IMG/VR virus record: IMGVR_UViG_643348545_000005
Strand: one strand, 5' to 3'
From: a virus
Taxonomy: Duplodnaviria; Heunggongvirae; Uroviricota; Caudoviricetes
Length of the DNA: 40,336 nt
The notes beneath the pieces were generated by a model. That model saw only the letters and a list, made by a program, of their open reading frames with translations, ran no database searches and was not told the origin of the DNA. Within the stretch, counting starts at the first letter, position 1. Each line of letters begins with the position of its first letter. Made by a program: the position numbers and the translations under genes. Of this stretch, positions 25,308 through 40,336 are shown piece after piece.

Positions 25308-25811
25308 TTAACGGAATGCGGATGGCGTTCTTCTTTGCAGCTTGCTGATAATATGCATCTTCATACTGTTTACTATCGGCAGCCATTCCCTGTCACCGTC
25401 TCCGTTGATGACCACGCGAATGGAGGTATCATCTTCCACGCGAACCCGAAGAGATACACCGTCTTTTCCGACGGAATGTAACTCCATTGCCAGGACTATG
25501 TTTACCGACTCTCCTTCATCGTGTGAGTCAACCCATGTTCTTACAGCCATCCGGAATATGTTATCTGTGTCGGTTGCAATCATATTTACCGGAAATGGCC
25601 TGAAGTCCCGATCGTTTCTGCACGGAAACCCCGTATCAACGTAACGATGATGCTCGCCGTCTTTGTCTTCCCATGTCTCTGAAGGCAATTCCAGCCACTG
25701 CTCATAAAAAGCAACCAGCTTTTCAGCCTGATTGCGCAGAATCCCTGTAACCTCCCGCCTCGCGTCCCGGCTCTTTTTGTTTGCCAGGTACAAATCGCGA
25801 AAATGGCTCAT
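25308..25811 (-). CDS. Hypothetical protein (167 aa), cargo gene at the portal/cos side
   Basis: Clean ORF with ordinary codon composition; no family I can recognise; lies in the variable region of P2-like phages. Confidence 0.5.
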   Translation of the reverse strand: MSHFRDLYLANKKSRDARREVTGILRNQAEKLVAFYEQWLELPSETWEDKDGEHHRYVDTGFPCRNDRDFRPFPVNMIATDTDNIFRMAVRTWVDSHDEGESVNIVLAMELHSVGKDGVSLRVRVEDDTSIRVVINGDGDREWLPIVNSMKMHIISKLQRRTPSAFR

Positions 25812-26356
25812 GTCGCTCTCCTTTGGTCTGTTTATGCCAGCCTGTATTCTGCGCTCACCTCATATTGTGCGCAAGTTTTCACCCGTGAATGACTGATACT
25901 TTAAATTCTATTAACTTTATGATTTCAGTGATTTTTGTCTCTCTTTTTTATCCCGTTCGTCACGTCCGTTTCCCTCCCGATCTCCGACCTCGCCAGACGC
26001 AATCAGACGCATTCTGACGGCCTGTTTCCCTGACCATGTTTTGATGTGGTTTTTCAAAACTGACTTTACTGCGTGCGTATCACGCGCCATACGACCCCAA
26101 ATAAAGCAACCCGCCTTCCATCCCTCAATTCGGGCGCCCTTCCCTCGTCGCCTGCGCGCTGCAATTGCCTCGTTTTTCGTGCACCGTGCAAACCGGCCTC
26201 AGCCAGCGCCGTTACTGGGCTGAATGGGGATGAAACACATAAGAAAAATTGTGCAATTTCGTGCGCTTTTGTGCATTTTTTATCTTGCGATTTTTGGGGG
26301 TGGGTGGTGATGATAATCATCTGTCTGAATCAGTGGTGTATTGCCGGGTGAGAACT

Positions 26357-26893
26357 GTGAAAAATTACTCATATCCTTATTTAACTTTTGTCACGCTTTC
26401 TGTTTTGGGGGGGATTTTTCTTTTTATTTGGTGGCGAAACGATGTTTACAGAATTACCTACCTTTATTCGTTCACGACAAACTGCCTTGTTTCAGTGTCT
26501 GTGGTGCTTTCGGTTTTTGTCTCACTGTGCCTGTTGAAAAAGAACCTGGTTGATCGGTCTAAATTTACCGGGGTTACATCGTATCTTAAGTTTTTTTCGG
26601 GTATGTGCCTTCTTACCTGGATGATTCTGTTTACCCTCCTGGTTACGCTGATATATTTTCTTCCGGGTGAAGATTCATTCTATTCCGCTCCCTATGAGTA
26701 CAGTCGCGGTAGCTCAAAAAGTTGTTCAGGGGCATTTGTTGATGATCCTGATTTGCAAAAAACAATCTTTATTTGCTACCCATACGGTGACTATCAGGAT
26801 GGTAATGTGATTTATGTGAAGAAGCGTGTGAATGCGCTGGGTGCGGTGGTCACCTATGCATACGCGACAAGCGGCCGATTTCGGTTTGACTGA
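26357..26893 (+). CDS. Hypothetical AT-rich membrane protein (about 3 TM helices plus a roughly 85-aa soluble C-terminal domain)
   Basis: ORF in an AT-rich island; hydrophobic segments; start uncertain (GTG at 26357 with a GGGTGAG RBS, or the internal ATG near 26599). Confidence 0.35.
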   Translation: MKNYSYPYLTFVTLSVLGGIFLFIWWRNDVYRITYLYSFTTNCLVSVSVVLSVFVSLCLLKKNLVDRSKFTGVTSYLKFFSGMCLLTWMILFTLLVTLIYFLPGEDSFYSAPYEYSRGSSKSCSGAFVDDPDLQKTIFICYPYGDYQDGNVIYVKKRVNALGAVVTYAYATSGRFRFD

Positions 26894-26942
26894 AAAAAGA
26901 AATCCTGTGTTACCCTCGCTGCTGAGGGTAACATGCGTGAAG

Positions 26943-27198
26943 TCATCGCCCGGTTCTTGAGCTGATAATGCTTTGCGTCAGCAGCTGCCAGCCCTCTTTC
27001 TGTTGCCCGTACTTGTCCTGATACCTGTTTACCTGCAAGTTTCCGTGCACCAGAATCAGATCGCCTTTTCTGTGTTTTGCCAGTTCTTCGTGCTGCTTCC
27101 CGAATGAAATAAGGTAAAGCCACATTGTGGTTGGCTGTTCTGCGCCATGGCAGGGTAGTGATACCGCCAGTTGTGCCGTTGTGACGTTTGAGGTAGCC
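26943..27198 (-). pseudogene. SSB-like OB-fold protein gene, 3-prime portion (interrupted by the IS)
   Basis: Translation ...TSNVTTAQLAVSLPCHGAEQPTTMWLYLISFGKQHEELAKHRKGDLILVHGNLQVNRYQDKYGQQKEGW aligns with the SSB core (W..V.LFGK...RKG..V.I.G.L..R.W.D..GQ); the frame runs up to the IS left end. Confidence 0.45.
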
Positions 27199-27252
27199 TG
27201 AGTTTAACGGACACTCCTTCCTGAAATAGAATGGCATCAGAAGGAGCTAATA

Positions 27253-34380: not shown

Positions 34381-35361
34381 TCACGTACTGGCAGGGGTAA
34401 ACATCACGCTGTAAGTTGCATCTCCCGTTACAGGTCCGCAGTCCGGGCAGTAGCCACCGCCATGGTGACCGCAGGCGTCGCACTGTCTCAGGGTGGCGAT
34501 AACCTCCGGTGCTGATTCCCGGGTTCTTGCGCCAACGCTTCGTGGTGCCTGTATGCAGTTCATCCGGTAACCCCGATAAATGCGTCGTGTTTCCGGTGTG
34601 TCGGAATTGGAGATGGTGATGCTGGTCATGCCGCCCGTTTCCTGTGAAAGGCGGTCAAGCGCTGCCCTCAGACGAACGTGCTCGTCTTCATCGAATGGTT
34701 TTCCGTAGGCGGTAAAATTGTCCCGGCCACTGAATTGCAGGTAAGGGGGATCGCAGTACACGCAAAGCGTGTTGCCCATGCCGAACAGGTGACTGGCAGA
34801 GTTCAGCGTATCCTTAAAATCTGCGTGGATAAGCAGCGTTCGGGTGCTGTTTGCCTTGTCTGCAAATGCGCGGATTTCACGCTCAGGGAAGTAGGGCTTG
34901 CGGTAGCAGCCGAAAGGCACGTTAAAATCGCCTTTTCCGTTCACGCGGAACAAACCGTTAAAGCTGTGCCGGTTCAGGTACAAAAACATGGCGGCCAGTC
35001 GCAGTTCACGGCGGTCGCTTATTCCCGTTCTGCTGTTCAGGAAGGCATGATTCTCTGCGTTAAAGGTTTCGCGAATGATGAGATAGTCACCCCTGTTGTT
35101 GTGGTTCAGGAACAGGGTTTTCGCCTCGTCGATCAGGCTGTCGGTGTTGTCCCTGGCTTGCCGGTAGAAATTAATCAGCGCACCATTGGAATCACCCAGG
35201 ATGTAACGCTTGTAACTGGTGTTCATGAATACCGATGCGCCACCCACAAACGGCTCAACCAGGCAGTCTGCTTCTGGCAGATGCGCCTTCAGTGTGTTCA
35301 TGATGCGACTTTTTCCGCCCACCCATTTAAGCGGCGTGCCGGATAACAGTTCTTTGCTCAT
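34381..35361 (-). CDS. dam: DNA adenine methyltransferase (Dam family, N6-adenine) with a C-terminal Cys4 zinc-ribbon extension
   Basis: LKWVGGK (AdoMet motif I) and DPPY (motif IV) match Dam family signatures; C-terminus CDACGHHGGGYCPDCGP. Confidence 0.8.
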   Translation of the reverse strand: MSKELLSGTPLKWVGGKSRIMNTLKAHLPEADCLVEPFVGGASVFMNTSYKRYILGDSNGALINFYRQARDNTDSLIDEAKTLFLNHNNRGDYLIIRETFNAENHAFLNSRTGISDRRELRLAAMFLYLNRHSFNGLFRVNGKGDFNVPFGCYRKPYFPEREIRAFADKANSTRTLLIHADFKDTLNSASHLFGMGNTLCVYCDPPYLQFSGRDNFTAYGKPFDEDEHVRLRAALDRLSQETGGMTSITISNSDTPETRRIYRGYRMNCIQAPRSVGARTRESAPEVIATLRQCDACGHHGGGYCPDCGPVTGDATYSVMFTPAST

Positions 35362-35585
35362 AACGCGGCCTCTTTGTTATAGGTTTCGTGCGTTAATAAA
35401 TCCCATGACGCCCCGTTGTTTTTGCTCAGCAATCGCCAGCGAAAACCGATTCTTATTACCAGGTAGTCGTGGGGTTTTATGCGTGAAAAATTCCGCACGC
35501 CGTCGCGGAATAAACGCAGCGATGCGCGGGCTTTTCTTTCCACGTTCAGGGGGGGGCAGCAACACACATTCAGGATGGCGACCAT
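35358..35585 (-). CDS. Hypothetical small protein (75 aa)
   Basis: ORF wedged between the exonuclease and dam genes; atypical composition, so low confidence. Confidence 0.25.
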   Translation of the reverse strand: MVAILNVCCCPPLNVERKARASLRLFRDGVRNFSRIKPHDYLVIRIGFRWRLLSKNNGASWDLLTHETYNKEAAL

Positions 35586-35594
35586 GGCTTCACC

Positions 35595-36185: not shown

Positions 36186-36406
36186 CCCTTCAGTTCGTCT
36201 GGGTTGGCGAGTATTGCAATCAGTCGTTCAATGGCTGCGCAGGTTTCCTGTGGACAGGTGTGTGTCTCTTTCGCTGTCTCAGTCAGCTCGCGCAGTAATT
36301 CGCAGATATGTGCACGCTCGGCTTTTCTTGCGGCCATGCTGATATGCGCATGATGGTTAGCTGGTCTGGCGGTTATTTCTCTGCCGGGTGATTCGGCTGT
36401 TCTCAT
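36176..36406 (-). CDS. Hypothetical Cys-containing protein (about 76 aa)
   Basis: ATG at 36406 with an AGGAG RBS; the track ORF extends upstream. Confidence 0.4.
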   Translation of the reverse strand: MRTAESPGREITARPANHHAHISMAARKAERAHICELLRELTETAKETHTCPQETCAAIERLIAILANPDELKGCA

Positions 36407-36512
36407 TTGTTGACTCCTGAAAAAAAGACAAAGGGAACCCGAAGGCATGAATGCCTTAATTAATTGCTCGTGTGTTTTCTGGTGTTATTCCGCGCCTGCT
36501 TTCGGCTTCAGG

Positions 36513-36608
36513 TTATTCCCAGATCTTCAGGGCTAACCAGATAAGCGCACTCACCTGAAATATCACCCATACAGTGGCGATGGTGTGTATTGCTTTTACA
36601 TTCTTCAT
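36513..36608 (-). CDS. Candidate small hydrophobic peptide (31 aa)
   Basis: My translation MKNVKAIHTIATVWVIFQVSALIWLALKIWE; below the ORF-track size cut-off. Confidence 0.2.
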   Translation of the reverse strand: MKNVKAIHTIATVWVIFQVSALIWLALKIWE

Positions 36609-36620
36609 AAGGTTTTCGCT

Positions 36621-36746
36621 TTATTTACGGCGTTTATCGCCGGTAAAGAATAATTCGATATCCTTCAGTGTGTAGATAATTCGCATAATGCCGATTGCCA
36701 TAAGCACGGAGATAATCAGAATTACCCATGAAAGAAATATGCTCAT
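36621..36746 (-). CDS. Candidate small membrane peptide (41 aa)
   Basis: My translation MSIFLSWVILIISVLMAIGIMRIIYTLKDIELFFTGDKRRK; start overlaps the stop of the upstream 80-aa ORF. Confidence 0.25.
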   Translation of the reverse strand: MSIFLSWVILIISVLMAIGIMRIIYTLKDIELFFTGDKRRK

Positions 36747-36985
36747 GCGGCTACCCCTGTGAAGTAAGGCTCAACAATTTCACCTTCAAACAGTTCTGTC
36801 ATAATCGACTTTAATTCTTCCAGCGCTTCACGGTCATCGCTGCCCAGTGCGCAGTTGTATAGCCCCATAATTGCGCCGCGCAGTGAGTTACGAAGGCTTT
36901 CATCCTTAGTTACGCCCCGGTTTGCAAGTTCGAAGTGGTAACGCTGCAACGCGTTATTAATAAGTATTTTGTAGGCTTCGATCAT
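36743..36985 (-). CDS. Hypothetical protein (80 aa)
   Basis: ORF in the early operon. Confidence 0.4.
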   Translation of the reverse strand: MIEAYKILINNALQRYHFELANRGVTKDESLRNSLRGAIMGLYNCALGSDDREALEELKSIMTELFEGEIVEPYFTGVAA

Positions 36986-37003
36986 GGCTGAATCCTTTAT
37001 TTA

Positions 37004-37348
37004 TCAGTGCTTGCTTCCCGGATATTGAAAACGCAGGCCGTTGATTAATCTGTCTGCCGTTCTTAAGGCTTCAAAAAATGTGAAATCCTGTCCGAAGTAA
37101 TCATCCCCGCGAGTCAGGGTGAAATTAAATCTGCCAGTAACAGGGCTGCGAAAACTTTTGTGAATAACGATGCCAGTGTCGCCAATCGTCCAGGTGTGCT
37201 TGCCGGTTTGTTTTACCGGGTGACCGTCTGGTGTGGCATGGATTTCAGTGGTTGTGGTCGCACTATTTTTGCGGAAGTGCTGGCGTGCAACGTGGCGTTC
37301 GGCACTTGTTCGAAAATTCTGCTGTGAAAAATTTCCCGGTTTCTTCAT
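37004..37348 (-). CDS. Hypothetical protein (about 114 aa)
   Basis: ATG at 37348 with an AGGGA RBS; the track ORF extends to 37405 without an RBS. Confidence 0.4.
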   Translation of the reverse strand: MKKPGNFSQQNFRTSAERHVARQHFRKNSATTTTEIHATPDGHPVKQTGKHTWTIGDTGIVIHKSFRSPVTGRFNFTLTRGDDYFGQDFTFFEALRTADRLINGLRFQYPGSKH

Positions 37349-37500
37349 AAAAATCCCTACTGCTGCTGTGAATTTGTGCCGGGTTTTTAGCCATGCCCGG
37401 CGCATGGTTTTGTAGTAATTTCGTTACGCCTTGCAATTCTTGCCCGAACTGTTGTAACGATAACCAACCACACAAAGGAGTATTTATGTTTTCTCATAAA

Positions 37501-37764
37501 CTATTTCGGCAATTTGCACTGCATTGAGACTGGTATCGAGTAAACCAGTCGTCGTTTTGGCGGTATTCGCAGTGGAAATGTTTTGTCACGGGAGATGTTG
37601 ATACTCTGCATCTTGACGATGCTGTCTTCCGTTATTTTTTCCTTTATCCACTCAAGTACCGTTACGGCCTCTTCGTAAGAATAATTATTCAGGGCAATCA
37701 ACATTGACTCTGTTGCATCCTGTAATCGTTTCACAAAATAATCCGGAGATTTCTCTTTATTCAT
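37501..37764 (-). CDS. Hypothetical protein (about 87 aa) in an AT-rich island
   Basis: ATG at 37764 with an AGGA RBS; the alternative track start is at 37878. Confidence 0.3.
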   Translation of the reverse strand: MNKEKSPDYFVKRLQDATESMLIALNNYSYEEAVTVLEWIKEKITEDSIVKMQSINISRDKTFPLRIPPKRRLVYSIPVSMQCKLPK

Positions 37765-38220
37765 ATGAAAATTATCCTTACATCCGAATCTGGGCGGTGG
37801 TTTTGGGTTTTGCGTGCTGCCGAACGTGAGCTTGCAAGAAGTGAGGGGTTTCACAGTTTTGTTGATGCCCGTGCTCATGCAGAACTCTTTCGTATTGGCG
37901 CGCGTTCCCCTGTGATTCTTCGCTCTGTAAAAAAATGTGCTCAGTCACTGGTGAATGATAAATATCACCTTGTCTTCTTGGTTACGGAATCTACGTCTGG
38001 TTTTTGCTTGTCACTTTCGTATCCTGAAAACATTCACTTGTATGATGAGGTGTTTGAGTCTTTTGAAGGTGCCGAATCGTTTGCTCAACATCTCTCATAC
38101 GATGTGTTCGAACTGGCTGATATTTATGATTGTTGGGGGTCGCTTATTCATCCCTTGCAACATTCTCGTTTTTACAGAAATGTGTTTGATATTGATGATG
38201 ATCATCCATCAGCCTGGTAG
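37765..38220 (+). CDS. Hypothetical protein (151 aa) in an AT-rich island, antisense to the early operon
   Basis: Long ORF with plausible protein composition; its ATG is back-to-back with the minus-strand ATG (CATATG at 37762-37767). Confidence 0.35.
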   Translation: MKIILTSESGRWFWVLRAAERELARSEGFHSFVDARAHAELFRIGARSPVILRSVKKCAQSLVNDKYHLVFLVTESTSGFCLSLSYPENIHLYDEVFESFEGAESFAQHLSYDVFELADIYDCWGSLIHPLQHSRFYRNVFDIDDDHPSAW

Positions 38221-38304
38221 GCTGCTTGCATAACAACCATTTTCCACAGCATCTGCGGCGAAATCTCATTCCTGGGATTTCGCTGTTGCCGGTTTGTTTT
38301 GATG

Positions 38305-38829
38305 TCACTGGTTGCCTCCACTGTATTGGTGTTGCTCCAGTTTTGACTTTCTTCCTGTGTAAACCCGCTTTCCATTGATGGTCTGGCAGTCTTCTTTGTT
38401 TGCCGGGGAAAACTTTCTTTTCTGTCGGTCGTATGTCCAGTAGCTTTTCCAGTTGTGCCATTCTGGCGGCTCGCATTCTGGTAGTTCGTCAGCCAGCTTG
38501 TCCCACTCTCTGGCGTTAAACCACCACACGCCATCCGAATTTTCATCTTCAGGGTTTGAACGGGTCTTGTGTCCAGGCATCTGATTTCGCTGAAGCGCCA
38601 CGCGCAATGCAGCTTTTGTCAACCCGATATAGGCTGCCCCTTTTTCAAGTGAGCAAAGTCCGGCTACCGGGCCATCCAGTCGCAAGGTTGCCCCTTTTTT
38701 GTAGGTGCGTTTTTTCTTTTCCTCTTGGTGTTCATCGTCGTTTGCCGCGCCAACGGATTCGGTGATGCTGTCGTTTTCCTGAAGGGCTTGTGTGTCAGAT
38801 AACTCTTTATCGGCAATTGACTTCCGCAT
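38305..38829 (-). CDS. First early-operon gene (174 aa); possible Cox/excisionase-like regulator with extensions
   Basis: Divergent from C with a 103-bp intergenic region; AGGA RBS; central segment is HTH-like and has a GVWWFNAREW segment reminiscent of P2 Cox GEYWVYLPAW; larger than Cox or Apl. Confidence 0.35.
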   Translation of the reverse strand: MRKSIADKELSDTQALQENDSITESVGAANDDEHQEEKKKRTYKKGATLRLDGPVAGLCSLEKGAAYIGLTKAALRVALQRNQMPGHKTRSNPEDENSDGVWWFNAREWDKLADELPECEPPEWHNWKSYWTYDRQKRKFSPANKEDCQTINGKRVYTGRKSKLEQHQYSGGNQ

Positions 38830-38891
38830 TTGCTATCCTCTTGCGTTGGTGCGCTTGTCGCGCATCATGAAGGTTTGTTTTGATTTGTTTA

Positions 38892-38909
38892 CTTCACCCT
38901 GTGGTGAAG
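38892..38909. promoter_or_regulatory. Palindromic operator-like site CTTCACC-N4-GGTGAAG in the C/early-operon intergenic region
   Basis: Perfect 7-bp inverted repeat between the divergent starts at 38829 and 38933. Confidence 0.3.
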
Positions 38910-38932
38910 TTCGAATAGAGGATACTCATCGT

Positions 38933-39274
38933 ATGGTGAACATGTCAAGAGATTACGCCAAAAAACTAAAGGCAATCAGAAACGCGGAAAACCTTACACA
39001 ATCTCAGTTTTCGCAAGTAACGGGAGTTTCTGTAGGAACTATAGGAAATTATGAGTCTGGATATAAACCTGCGCGAATTGAGGTTGTAGAAAAAGTAATC
39101 CAAGTCGAGCGATTCGAAAAATACACTATGTGGATACTTCACGACAAAACATTTCCCGCTGCCGGGCAGGTTGCCCCGGCTCTCTCTCTTGATGGCTCCA
39201 TTCAGTCGGAGGGCGATCAGGTTTCAATCGGCATTACCCAAAAATCACCCCGATCTCGTCGCAATGCTGGCTAA
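38933..39274 (+). CDS. C: Immunity repressor C (XRE-family HTH)
   Basis: HTH (LTQSQFSQVTGVSVGTIGNYESG) and C-terminal FEKYTMWIL...GQVAPAL match P2 C. Start set at the ATG at 38933; the track ORF begins upstream. Confidence 0.75.
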   Translation: MVNMSRDYAKKLKAIRNAENLTQSQFSQVTGVSVGTIGNYESGYKPARIEVVEKVIQVERFEKYTMWILHDKTFPAAGQVAPALSLDGSIQSEGDQVSIGITQKSPRSRRNAG

Positions 39275-39343
39275 CGCTGTACATCGAGCGGGTTTCATCC
39301 CGTAGAGAGTGTACGGCTGATTCATCCGTTGGAGGGGCTAATC

Positions 39344-40336
39344 ATGTCGATTAAGCAACTCAAAGACGGGCGTTATAAGGTTGATGTAAGACCGCAAGGG
39401 ACGGAAGGAAAGCGGATCCGTAAGATTTTTACCCTGAAGTCAAAGGCACAGGAGTTTGAAAGGTATGTTTTGCAGAATTTCCACGATAAACCGTGGCAGG
39501 CCAAGCCAGCTGATCAGCGTCGGTTATCCGAACTGATAGATGCCTGGTGGGTGCTTGATGGCCGGAATCAGCCTTACGGGGATACTTACAGGGTCAGGCT
39601 GGAAAAAATAAACCGTGAGATGAGGGACCCCTGCGCCAGTGAGATGACGCGAAAGTTTATGCTCGGGTATCGTTCAGACAAATTACAGGCCGGATTAATG
39701 CCCTCCAGTGTTAATCGTGATTTGTGCGCCTTGTCTGCAATGTTTACCTCGCTGATTGATGCGGAGGTTTTCCATAACGAAAACCCGGTGCGTGGAATAC
39801 GTAAGCTCAAGGTCAGGAATACAGAAATGGCCTTTCTTTCAGATGATGAGATTGATCGGCTGCTTGAACGACTCGAGGGGGATGCGCGTCGTGTTGCTGT
39901 TCTGTGTCTTTCCACTGGCGCAAGGTGGGGGGAAGCAGCTGGCTTACGTGGTGAGCATATCGTTGGTAACCGCGTAATGTTCTTTAACACAAAGAATGGA
40001 AAATCCCGCGCGGTTCCTGTTTCTGATACGGTGCTTTCGTTGATAAAAACCCGAAAAACCGGGCTATTGTACCAGGCTGATTACATCCGTTTTCGGGATA
40101 TCCTTCAGGAGGTGAAACCGGATTTACCCAAAGGTCAGGCGACTCACGTTATGCGTCACACGTTCGCCACGCATTTCATGATGAACGGCGGAAATATCGT
40201 TACGTTACAGCGAATCCTTGGGCACACCACGATTCAACAAACGATGACGTATGCGCATTTTTCACCGGACTTTTTACAGGATGCGATTAGCTTTAATCCG
40301 CTGGCTGATAGTGTCCATAAACTGTCCATTGACTAG
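39344..40336 (+). CDS. int: Tyrosine integrase (P2 Int family)
   Basis: Similarity to P2 Int (MSIKQL.DGRY.VD.RP, LSTGARWGEAA, HxxRHTFATHFMMNGG, ILGHT...YAHF); GGAGGGG RBS; ends exactly at the window end. Confidence 0.9.
   Translation: MSIKQLKDGRYKVDVRPQGTEGKRIRKIFTLKSKAQEFERYVLQNFHDKPWQAKPADQRRLSELIDAWWVLDGRNQPYGDTYRVRLEKINREMRDPCASEMTRKFMLGYRSDKLQAGLMPSSVNRDLCALSAMFTSLIDAEVFHNENPVRGIRKLKVRNTEMAFLSDDEIDRLLERLEGDARRVAVLCLSTGARWGEAAGLRGEHIVGNRVMFFNTKNGKSRAVPVSDTVLSLIKTRKTGLLYQADYIRFRDILQEVKPDLPKGQATHVMRHTFATHFMMNGGNIVTLQRILGHTTIQQTMTYAHFSPDFLQDAISFNPLADSVHKLSID

Follow-up and report, generated by a model that had tools for sequence, protein, structure and literature searches.

Can two genes on opposite strands begin at start codons that touch each other, and, if so, by what route could both of them be expressed? 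This question is raised by a locus in the IMG/VR virus record IMGVR_UViG_643348545_000005, whose 40,336 nucleotides (nt), here called the window, constitute a P2-like (Peduoviridae) prophage of Escherichia coli integrated beside dmsA. At positions 37762..37767 of the window the hexamer CATATG sets two start codons back to back with no intergenic base: the ATG of a plus-strand open reading frame (ORF) occupies 37765-37767, and the ATG of a minus-strand ORF is the complement of 37762-37764. The plus-strand ORF (37765..38220), which belongs to phrog_28512, encodes 151 amino acids (aa) and is referred to as the big gene; the minus-strand ORF (37501..37764) encodes 87 aa and is referred to as the small gene, its ATG being internal to a reading frame open from 37878 (37501..37878, 125 aa). 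The original prediction had described an AT-rich island with these opposed ORFs as a horizontally acquired insert, and had held that two divergent genes cannot both use promoters in this way, so that either one call was wrong or the minus gene started at 37878. The description proved exact in its coordinates and lengths, with a GC content of 0.422 against 0.537 for the window. The dilemma is contradicted by comparison with relatives, according to which these are two genuine opposite-strand genes starting at directly abutting ATGs.

That neither ORF might have homologues or a coding signal is contradicted by what was found, for both ORFs have both. Relatives were few in word-index searches, the informative pair being that of Salmonella, in which a 154-aa protein is 56% identical to the big protein and an 87-aa protein is 58% identical to the small one. 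Measured against these homologues, the big gene has a ratio of non-synonymous to synonymous substitution rates (dN/dS) of 0.17-0.21 and the small gene one of 0.12-0.16; synonymous sites are saturated. By these ratios both ORFs are protein-coding and under purifying selection. As to the starts, the in-frame extension of the small gene up to 37878 carries four stop codons in the Salmonella relatives, by which the 125-aa minus-strand ORF is ruled out, and for the big gene of Salmonella no alternative ATG, GTG or TTG is available between codons 1 and 75. The RefSeq/PGAP annotation (WP_225379704.1 in NZ_CP075652) begins the big gene at TTG 37810, for a product of 136 aa; this start is ruled out by the codon at its position, which is TTA in Salmonella, by residues S7 and W14, which lie upstream of it and are invariant across seven lineages, and by an exhaustive profile search of 1.84 billion representative proteins, in which the big family consists of nine clusters only, all aligning from residue 1. 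Taken together, the stops in the extension, the Salmonella starts, the alignments from residue 1 and the invariant S7 and W14 place the starts at ATG 37765 on the plus strand and ATG 37764 on the minus strand, and 15 codons are probably missing from the RefSeq model of the big gene. A leaderless mRNA for the big gene was also considered and rejected, since by eye no -10 element lies at a suitable distance.

The arrangement is kept in other P2-like prophages. At every locus of the big family that was recovered, a gene of 86-89 aa lies on the other strand at zero spacing, as placed by the gene caller. Such head-to-head loci occur in a Salmonella-type group (L003, L004, L014 and L019), in L009 and L010, in L011, in Trabulsiella odontotermitis (L013, L017 and L020), in L015, L016 and L021, in L018 and in L022, as well as in two Salmonella-type loci with a truncated big gene (L024 and L025). 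Direct reading of the junction in eight lineages gave CAT|ATG each time, and these lineages are widely separated, as the big proteins are 26-56% identical to that of the window and the small proteins 46-62% identical among themselves. Orientation is constant as well: the small gene has the direction of the early operon, and the big gene, antisense to it, that of the repressor gene C and of int. The pair always lies in the early (cox-side) operon, upstream of cox in some lineages and downstream of it in others. Searched by tblastn against the phage records of INPHARED, the big protein gave no match. Divergent overlaps are the rarest class of prokaryotic gene overlap, with 331 cases as against 12,737 codirectional ones in 58 genomes, and this rarity has been ascribed to the need to encode initiation signals (PMC2174442).

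Some loci depart from the common form. A putative distant pair, found in L060 and L032 at 50-545 nt to the right of the conserved block described below, is likewise head to head, with start codons overlapping by 8 nt (ATGTGCAT); its 79-aa member is aligned to the small family with an hhalign probability of 88%, and its 87-aa plus-strand ORF shows a weak match to the big family, one domain that looks YegP-like by eye and a tail reading ...F-I-K-T-H-P. In the contig IMGVR_UViG_645058790_000015 (L048), the stretch 97-564 nt to the right of the same block encodes a 155-aa protein distantly homologous to the big family (E=4.8e-10 by hmmsearch). In the two truncated Salmonella loci (L024 and L025; proteins P0003 and P0004) the big gene is cut at about residue 113 and its C-terminal motif is lost, with the small gene intact; the truncation came about by recombination with an adjoining module (a 93-aa gene on the other strand, with C and int) and not by point inactivation.

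With abutting starts, the Shine-Dalgarno (SD) sequence of each gene falls inside the first codons of the other. This is what was found in every lineage, where the SD-like purine runs of both genes are contained in the first 5-7 codons of the gene opposite, with duplex energies with the anti-SD of -3 to -6.6 kcal/mol. The window has AAGGA as the small-gene SD; this run stands 9-10 nt from the small-gene ATG, is encoded by the big-gene codons I-I-L and is invariant between E. coli and Salmonella. In most lineages a proline codon of the small gene supplies the SD of the big gene, GGAG or GGGG at a distance of 6-9 nt; in the clade of the window the proline position reads K-E, the sole GGAG being 15 nt from the big-gene ATG. 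Two consequences follow from this mutual embedding. First, an insertion or deletion where the genes meet would move both SDs out of place, and no more than this is needed to account for the frozen junction. Second, any leader-bearing mRNA of one gene is complementary to the 5' coding end of the other. Codon conservation near the junction is mildly raised, the frequency of identical codons over the first 10-20 codons of the small gene being 0.62 and 0.51 as against 0.45 overall.

The position of the pair within the prophage bears on how the minus-strand gene could be transcribed. The early operon lies on the strand opposite to C and int and encodes a 174-aa Cox-like regulator as its first gene, followed by a DUF4761 protein, a DUF4754 protein, an exonuclease, a ParE-like protein and a Dam methylase. 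The small gene stands between the first two of these, namely the Cox-like regulator (phrog_23196; 38305..38829, minus strand) on the right and the DUF4761 gene (37004..37348, minus strand) on the left, and since it lies within this operon it does not need a local promoter. At the right end of the window are the C-type helix-turn-helix repressor gene C (38933-39274, plus strand) and int (39344-40336, plus strand). A Pe-like sigma-70 promoter, TTGACA-18-TATCCT, was recognized by consensus match on the minus strand at 38919..38948, and an early transcript that includes the small gene would probably start from this promoter, read from 38948 to 38919. In P2 the promoters Pe and Pc lie face to face, and a Pe-like site at the start of the C gene fits this layout. 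The objection that two divergent genes cannot both use promoters is thus answered on both strands, as the minus gene is part of the Pe operon and a conserved plus-strand leader, provided with an SD and ATG of its own, precedes the plus gene. In the minus-strand RNA, about 540 nt over 37765-38304 would be left untranslated between the stop of the cox-like gene and the start of the small gene; C slightly exceeds G in this stretch (127 versus 110), and it could expose the early operon to Rho-dependent polarity.

The two genes make up an AT-rich accessory island (37431..38287, 857 base pairs (bp)), whose borders were set where similarity to relatives ends: the match to other P2-like phages and to E. 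coli prophages breaks off on the left at about 37430 and is taken up again on the right at 38288-38289. Its GC content of 0.422 compares with a window mean of 0.537 (standard deviation 0.04), and 857-bp windows with a GC as low are 0.18% of the total; GC at third codon positions (GC3) is 0.36 in the big gene and 0.48 in the small gene as against 0.60-0.65 in the phage core genes. On the left the contrast, though real, is blurred, since nearby early and immunity genes are also somewhat AT-rich (0.45 for C, 0.47 for DUF4754 and 0.44 for 36400-37000). Of 5426 complete E. coli genomes, only 6 contain the DNA of the island, and 19 more genomes match just one of its two flanks. In an otherwise similar prophage at the same dmsA site (L002), a different 64-aa gene stands in place of the island. 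It is therefore like accessory cargo in being missing from relatives that keep its flanks and in having a base composition unlike that of its host phage. The proposal of horizontal acquisition is borne out by the low GC and GC3, by the other DNA at the same site in related dmsA prophages and by the unrelated cargo found there in many P2-like phages; judged from its sequence, the island is an insert of foreign composition that has been exchanged horizontally, and forms a rare two-gene cassette that was swapped in. A 15-bp direct repeat, TTGCCGGTTTGTTTT (37200-37214 and 38286-38300), was considered as a target-site duplication and rejected because both copies (CCGGTTTGTTTT) are present in L002, which lacks the island; the sequence GGTTTGTTTTGAT, at 38872-38884 near the Pe/Pc region, echoes this repeat. 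Short repeats common to the island and the 5' end of cox were treated as chance.

The left edge of the exchanged region is marked by a conserved block, GCCGGGTTTTTAGCCATGCCCGGCGCATGG (37378..37407, plus strand), which contains the palindrome CCATGC-N5-GCATGG and of which about 30 nt are near-invariant across very divergent lineages and Salmonella phage SEN5. It is followed by a leader (37408..37474, plus strand) made up of TTTTGT(A)GTAATTT, an inner stem-loop (37422-37459) and a CA-rich arm, ACCACACAA, complementary to the first arm. In relatives the leader segment TTTTGTGGTAATTT reads as an extended -10-like element, TGgTAnnnT; the inner hairpin, compared by eye, keeps its pairing and varies in sequence, and the CA-rich arm is complementary to TTGTGG. 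Next come a strong SD, AAGGAG (37475-37480), and an ATG at 37486 that opens a 13-codon ORF, MFSHKLFRQFALH, the whole segment (37475..37527, plus strand) being antisense to the 3' end of the small gene. An SD and ATG just beyond the small-gene stop are kept in 5 of the 7 cassette lineages examined, the two without them being L011 and L022, and the ORFs that they open are 13-21 aa long (17-21 aa in four other cassette lineages); the 13-codon ORF could be a leader peptide, a stub left from cargo exchange, or something else.

The same order, namely the block, TTTTGTGGTAnnnT, a variable stem-loop, the CA-rich arm, a strong SD and a start codon, is followed in other phages by a cargo ORF directed opposite to the early genes. 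In SEN5 (L023, 1806-2100) this leader stands ahead of a 60-aa plus-strand ORF (SEN5_34) that is antisense within the early operon. The 18-nt core of the block was found in 56 P2-like contigs of IMG/VR (L026-L081). On the right of the block, at least 42 of these contigs carry an SD and a start codon, and among the remaining 14 most have, by eye, SD-like runs outside the pattern. The cargo ORFs, 27-158 aa long, represent at least 13 unrelated families. By comparison of these contigs, then, the P2-like lineage has a hypervariable 'antisense slot' between the first early gene and the block, and the island is one of its cargoes. The slot is apparently undescribed in the literature; in a survey of P2 defence systems, 8% were located between integrase and primase, making this interval a minor defence hotspot (PMC13586616). 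In four genomes (L009, L013, L022 and L023) there are two Cox-type genes, a first early gene of 158-174 aa and a 93-aa Cox further downstream, and the slot lies between them. At the other end of the cargo, 38 nt past the stop of the big gene, a hairpin with an 11-bp stem and the loop TTCC is followed by TGTTGCCGGTTTGTTTT (38258..38283, plus strand). It has a partial T-run on the plus strand only and most relatives also have a hairpin there; it looks like a weak terminator for that strand, and falls short in a strict terminator scan. In the region 36800-39400, no Rfam family was matched.

From these data an expression model can be proposed, in which the two genes form an accessory cassette in a slot of the Pe operon and are expressed in opposition, the big gene by the slot transcript and the small gene by Pe; we regard the chances of this model as evenly balanced. 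The small gene would be made from the Pe transcript on prophage induction or phage infection. The big gene would be made from the plus-strand transcript of the slot, which is antisense to the whole of the small gene, most plausibly in the lysogen, where Pe is repressed; the conserved leader that would drive unrelated cargo genes in other phages would serve the big gene likewise. Convergent transcription together with RNA pairing of the 5' ends would then make expression reciprocal, with the big gene on and the small gene off in lysogeny and the reverse in the lytic phase. More speculatively, one may guess that the big acidic protein is an accessory function expressed in the lysogen and the small basic one its lytic-phase partner or antagonist. 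A bolder version would make the cassette a self-contained lysogeny/lysis toggle of a new kind: a tandem YegP-like effector made only in the lysogen, for example for superinfection exclusion or defence, with a head-to-head small antagonist made only from the early lytic transcript, mutual exclusion being achieved by antisense masking of both ribosome-binding sites, and with a regulated antisense slot that samples many cargo genes; in this full form the idea is rather unlikely.

Several results weigh against opposed expression from the slot and Pe. Scans of the island for sigma-70 promoters, by consensus and, in three lineages, by weight matrix, gave nothing above shuffled controls and no positionally conserved strong match; the best local candidate, TTGCAT-18-AATAAT, which ends 23 nt ahead of the big-gene ATG, does not exceed shuffled expectation. 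The -10-like motif of the leader may be an element of RNA or DNA structure rather than a promoter, because it is also one arm of the conserved inverted repeat, and a test of strand asymmetry in folding slightly favoured the early strand (30/46, p=0.03). At position 37414 the window and E. coli STEC17-183 (L001) read TGTAG, as against TGTGG in L018, L067 and almost all other leaders; this G-to-A change lies in the most conserved motif of the leader and breaks both the TG of the extended -10-like element and the outer helix. Because of this change and of the sole SD-like run being 15 nt from the ATG, expression of the big gene in the window may be weak. Moreover, about 240 nt of untranslated RNA would part the short leader ORF from the big gene. 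A strict dependence between effector and antidote is doubtful because the big-family gene of L048 exists without a small gene, and neither protein matches a family of known function in the sequence-family and structure searches.

Other explanations of the same facts were weighed against the cassette with opposed expression. Both genes may be real and the junction simply a frozen compaction with no regulatory role, kept since an indel wrecks both ribosome-binding sites, the products having no necessary link to lysis and lysogeny. The mutual embedding of the SDs suffices for the conservation of the junction, synonymous constraint near it is merely mildly raised, and the scans revealed no promoter or operator; this account does less well with the constant orientation relative to the early operon and C/int, with the use of the same slot in every lineage, and with the complementarity of the 5' ends, which is unavoidable if both genes are transcribed with leaders. 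We consider it a possible explanation that falls well short of probable. That one ORF is not a gene or starts elsewhere (37878 on the minus strand, 37810 on the plus strand) has in its favour the RefSeq/PGAP choice of TTG 37810 and the fact that ATG 37878 is in frame and open in the window; such an annotation artefact is contradicted by the comparative data already given (stops in the extension, TTA at the TTG position, invariant upstream residues and purifying selection) and is highly improbable.

The strict co-occurrence of the two genes, their about equal conservation, their conserved tails of opposite charge and the presence of truncated big-gene variants beside an intact small gene could also suggest a toxin-antitoxin-like or addiction module in which one product is harmful and the other neutralizes it. 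The genes are, however, divergent, whereas those of type II systems are co-transcribed; the small protein is unlike the hydrophobic toxins of type I systems; no toxin, antitoxin or defence profile was matched in Pfam, NCBIfam or PADLOC; a big-family homologue stands alone in L048, directly at the SD of the slot and with no small-gene partner; and the truncated variant was produced by recombination with the neighbouring module, not by point inactivation, so that a module of this kind is unlikely. As the leader faces C and int from within the early operon and its palindrome overlaps the presumed -35 region, it could instead be a regulated promoter like pE of phage 186, whose establishment-type transcript would read through the big gene, a mere passenger, into antisense cox, C and int; with no proper T-run after it, the hairpin past the big gene may allow readthrough. 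No CII-like gene was identified, and cargo genes of the slot are usually followed by a hairpin, and this explanation is judged distinctly improbable.

What the proteins themselves might do is hinted at only weakly by their families and predicted structures. Homologues were found for both, none of known function. The big protein is acidic, with an isoelectric point (pI) of 5.4. Its AlphaFold2 (AF2) model has a mean predicted local distance difference test (pLDDT) score of 60 (about 87 for residues 1-30) and consists of two beta-beta-beta-alpha units and, at the C-terminal end, a tail of low confidence in which lies the best-conserved motif of the family, HPLxxSxxYRxxFxIxDxHPS. Among Pfam, PHROGs, NCBIfam and PADLOC, the only matches were phrog_28512, to which no function is assigned, and DUF1508 (PF07411) below threshold, the latter being the top Pfam match with 13.3 bits and E=0.078 against a gathering cut-off of 22 bits; within the big family, 2 of 7 members match DUF1508, the best with E=0.0051. 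The top match among PDB sequences is YegP (2K8E), which at E=0.38 is not significant. Against viral structures, Foldseek returned the DUF1508 protein of Gordonia phage Horus with a probability of 1.00 and E=0.02, and several phage proteins of about 50-60 aa with a root mean square deviation of 1-3 A, none of the viral matches reaching E<=0.001. Against the PDB, it gave none at E<=0.001 for the big protein, the best being tandem double-stranded RNA-binding domains (E=0.035). Alignment with YegP by hhalign, for which the YegP sequence may have been inexact, had a probability of 1%, and that of domain 1 with domain 2 of the big protein a probability of 43%, which is suggestive only of an internal repeat. 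The N-terminal domain of about 45 residues shares with YegP and DUF1508 the beta-beta-beta-alpha order and the motif W-x-W-x-L ... S, whereas the conserved C-terminal motif has no counterpart in YegP; the domain as modelled may thus be called YegP-like weakly, by resemblance and not by membership. No established function of DUF1508 was found in the literature.

The small protein is basic, with a pI of 9.3 overall and of 11 in its tail, and is predicted to form a helical hairpin followed by a conserved and probably disordered tail, FPxRxPPxRRxxY. It has no significant match in Pfam, NCBIfam, PADLOC or PDB sequences, nor any by Foldseek in the PDB. The defence profiles of PADLOC-DB v2 matched neither protein, nor the distant members of the families.

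The island resembles the morons and defence hotspots of P2-like phages (old, tin and fun(Z); Rousset et al. 2022, PMC9122126; PMC13586616) in that it is lower-GC, non-core DNA between conserved phage flanks, is exchanged among relatives and has an orientation that permits expression during repression of the lytic operon, and its place in the interval between int and primase is that of the minor hotspot (PMC13586616). It differs from them in that it is not one of the two classical hotspots and matches no known defence protein, and in that its cargo is a head-to-head pair with one member on the lytic transcript. With regard to expression, there is a likeness to prgQ/prgX of pCF10 (PMC3181467) and scbA/scbR of Streptomyces (PMC3134472), in which complementary 5' regions are shared, and transcriptional interference together with antisense pairing can give reciprocal expression of the kind proposed here; in the cassette, unlike in those switches, the start codons of the proteins touch and each SD lies in the other ORF, and the overlap of transcripts proposed for the cassette is predicted from sequence, whereas for those switches promoters and overlaps were shown experimentally.

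Face-to-face or overlapping divergent transcription is also found in the switches of P2 (Pe/Pc) and 186 (pR/pL), in RNA-IN/RNA-OUT of IS10 and in the excludons of Listeria, which the proposed reciprocal expression likewise resembles. BstA with its aba element is a prophage defence with built-in self-immunity; the likeness of the cassette to it is purely conceptual, as a lysogen function that would need to be switched off in the lytic phase, and there is no relation in sequence or structure. On these comparisons the gene arrangement is genuine and unusual, its setting as a prophage accessory locus is commonplace, and the expression logic suggested for the pair is plausible. The locus corrects a plausible misreading, in that opposed genes can begin at touching start codons. 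Conserved down to 26% identity of the big protein, it is a clean natural case of two mutually embedded initiation regions, and its geometry lets one ask whether abutting starts force either/or expression. The slot, with cargo of at least 13 families, is a candidate reservoir of lysogen-expressed genes, with possible defence or conversion phenotypes.

Two further observations were made in the same prophage. According to the annotation of L001, a gene for a 'ParE family toxin-like protein' at about 35359-35586 (minus strand) lies between the exonuclease and Dam methylase genes, with no annotated antitoxin adjoining it. A second stretch of low GC (<45%) extends over about 25800-27200, and by its position is probably the primase-portal accessory hotspot of P2-like phages.

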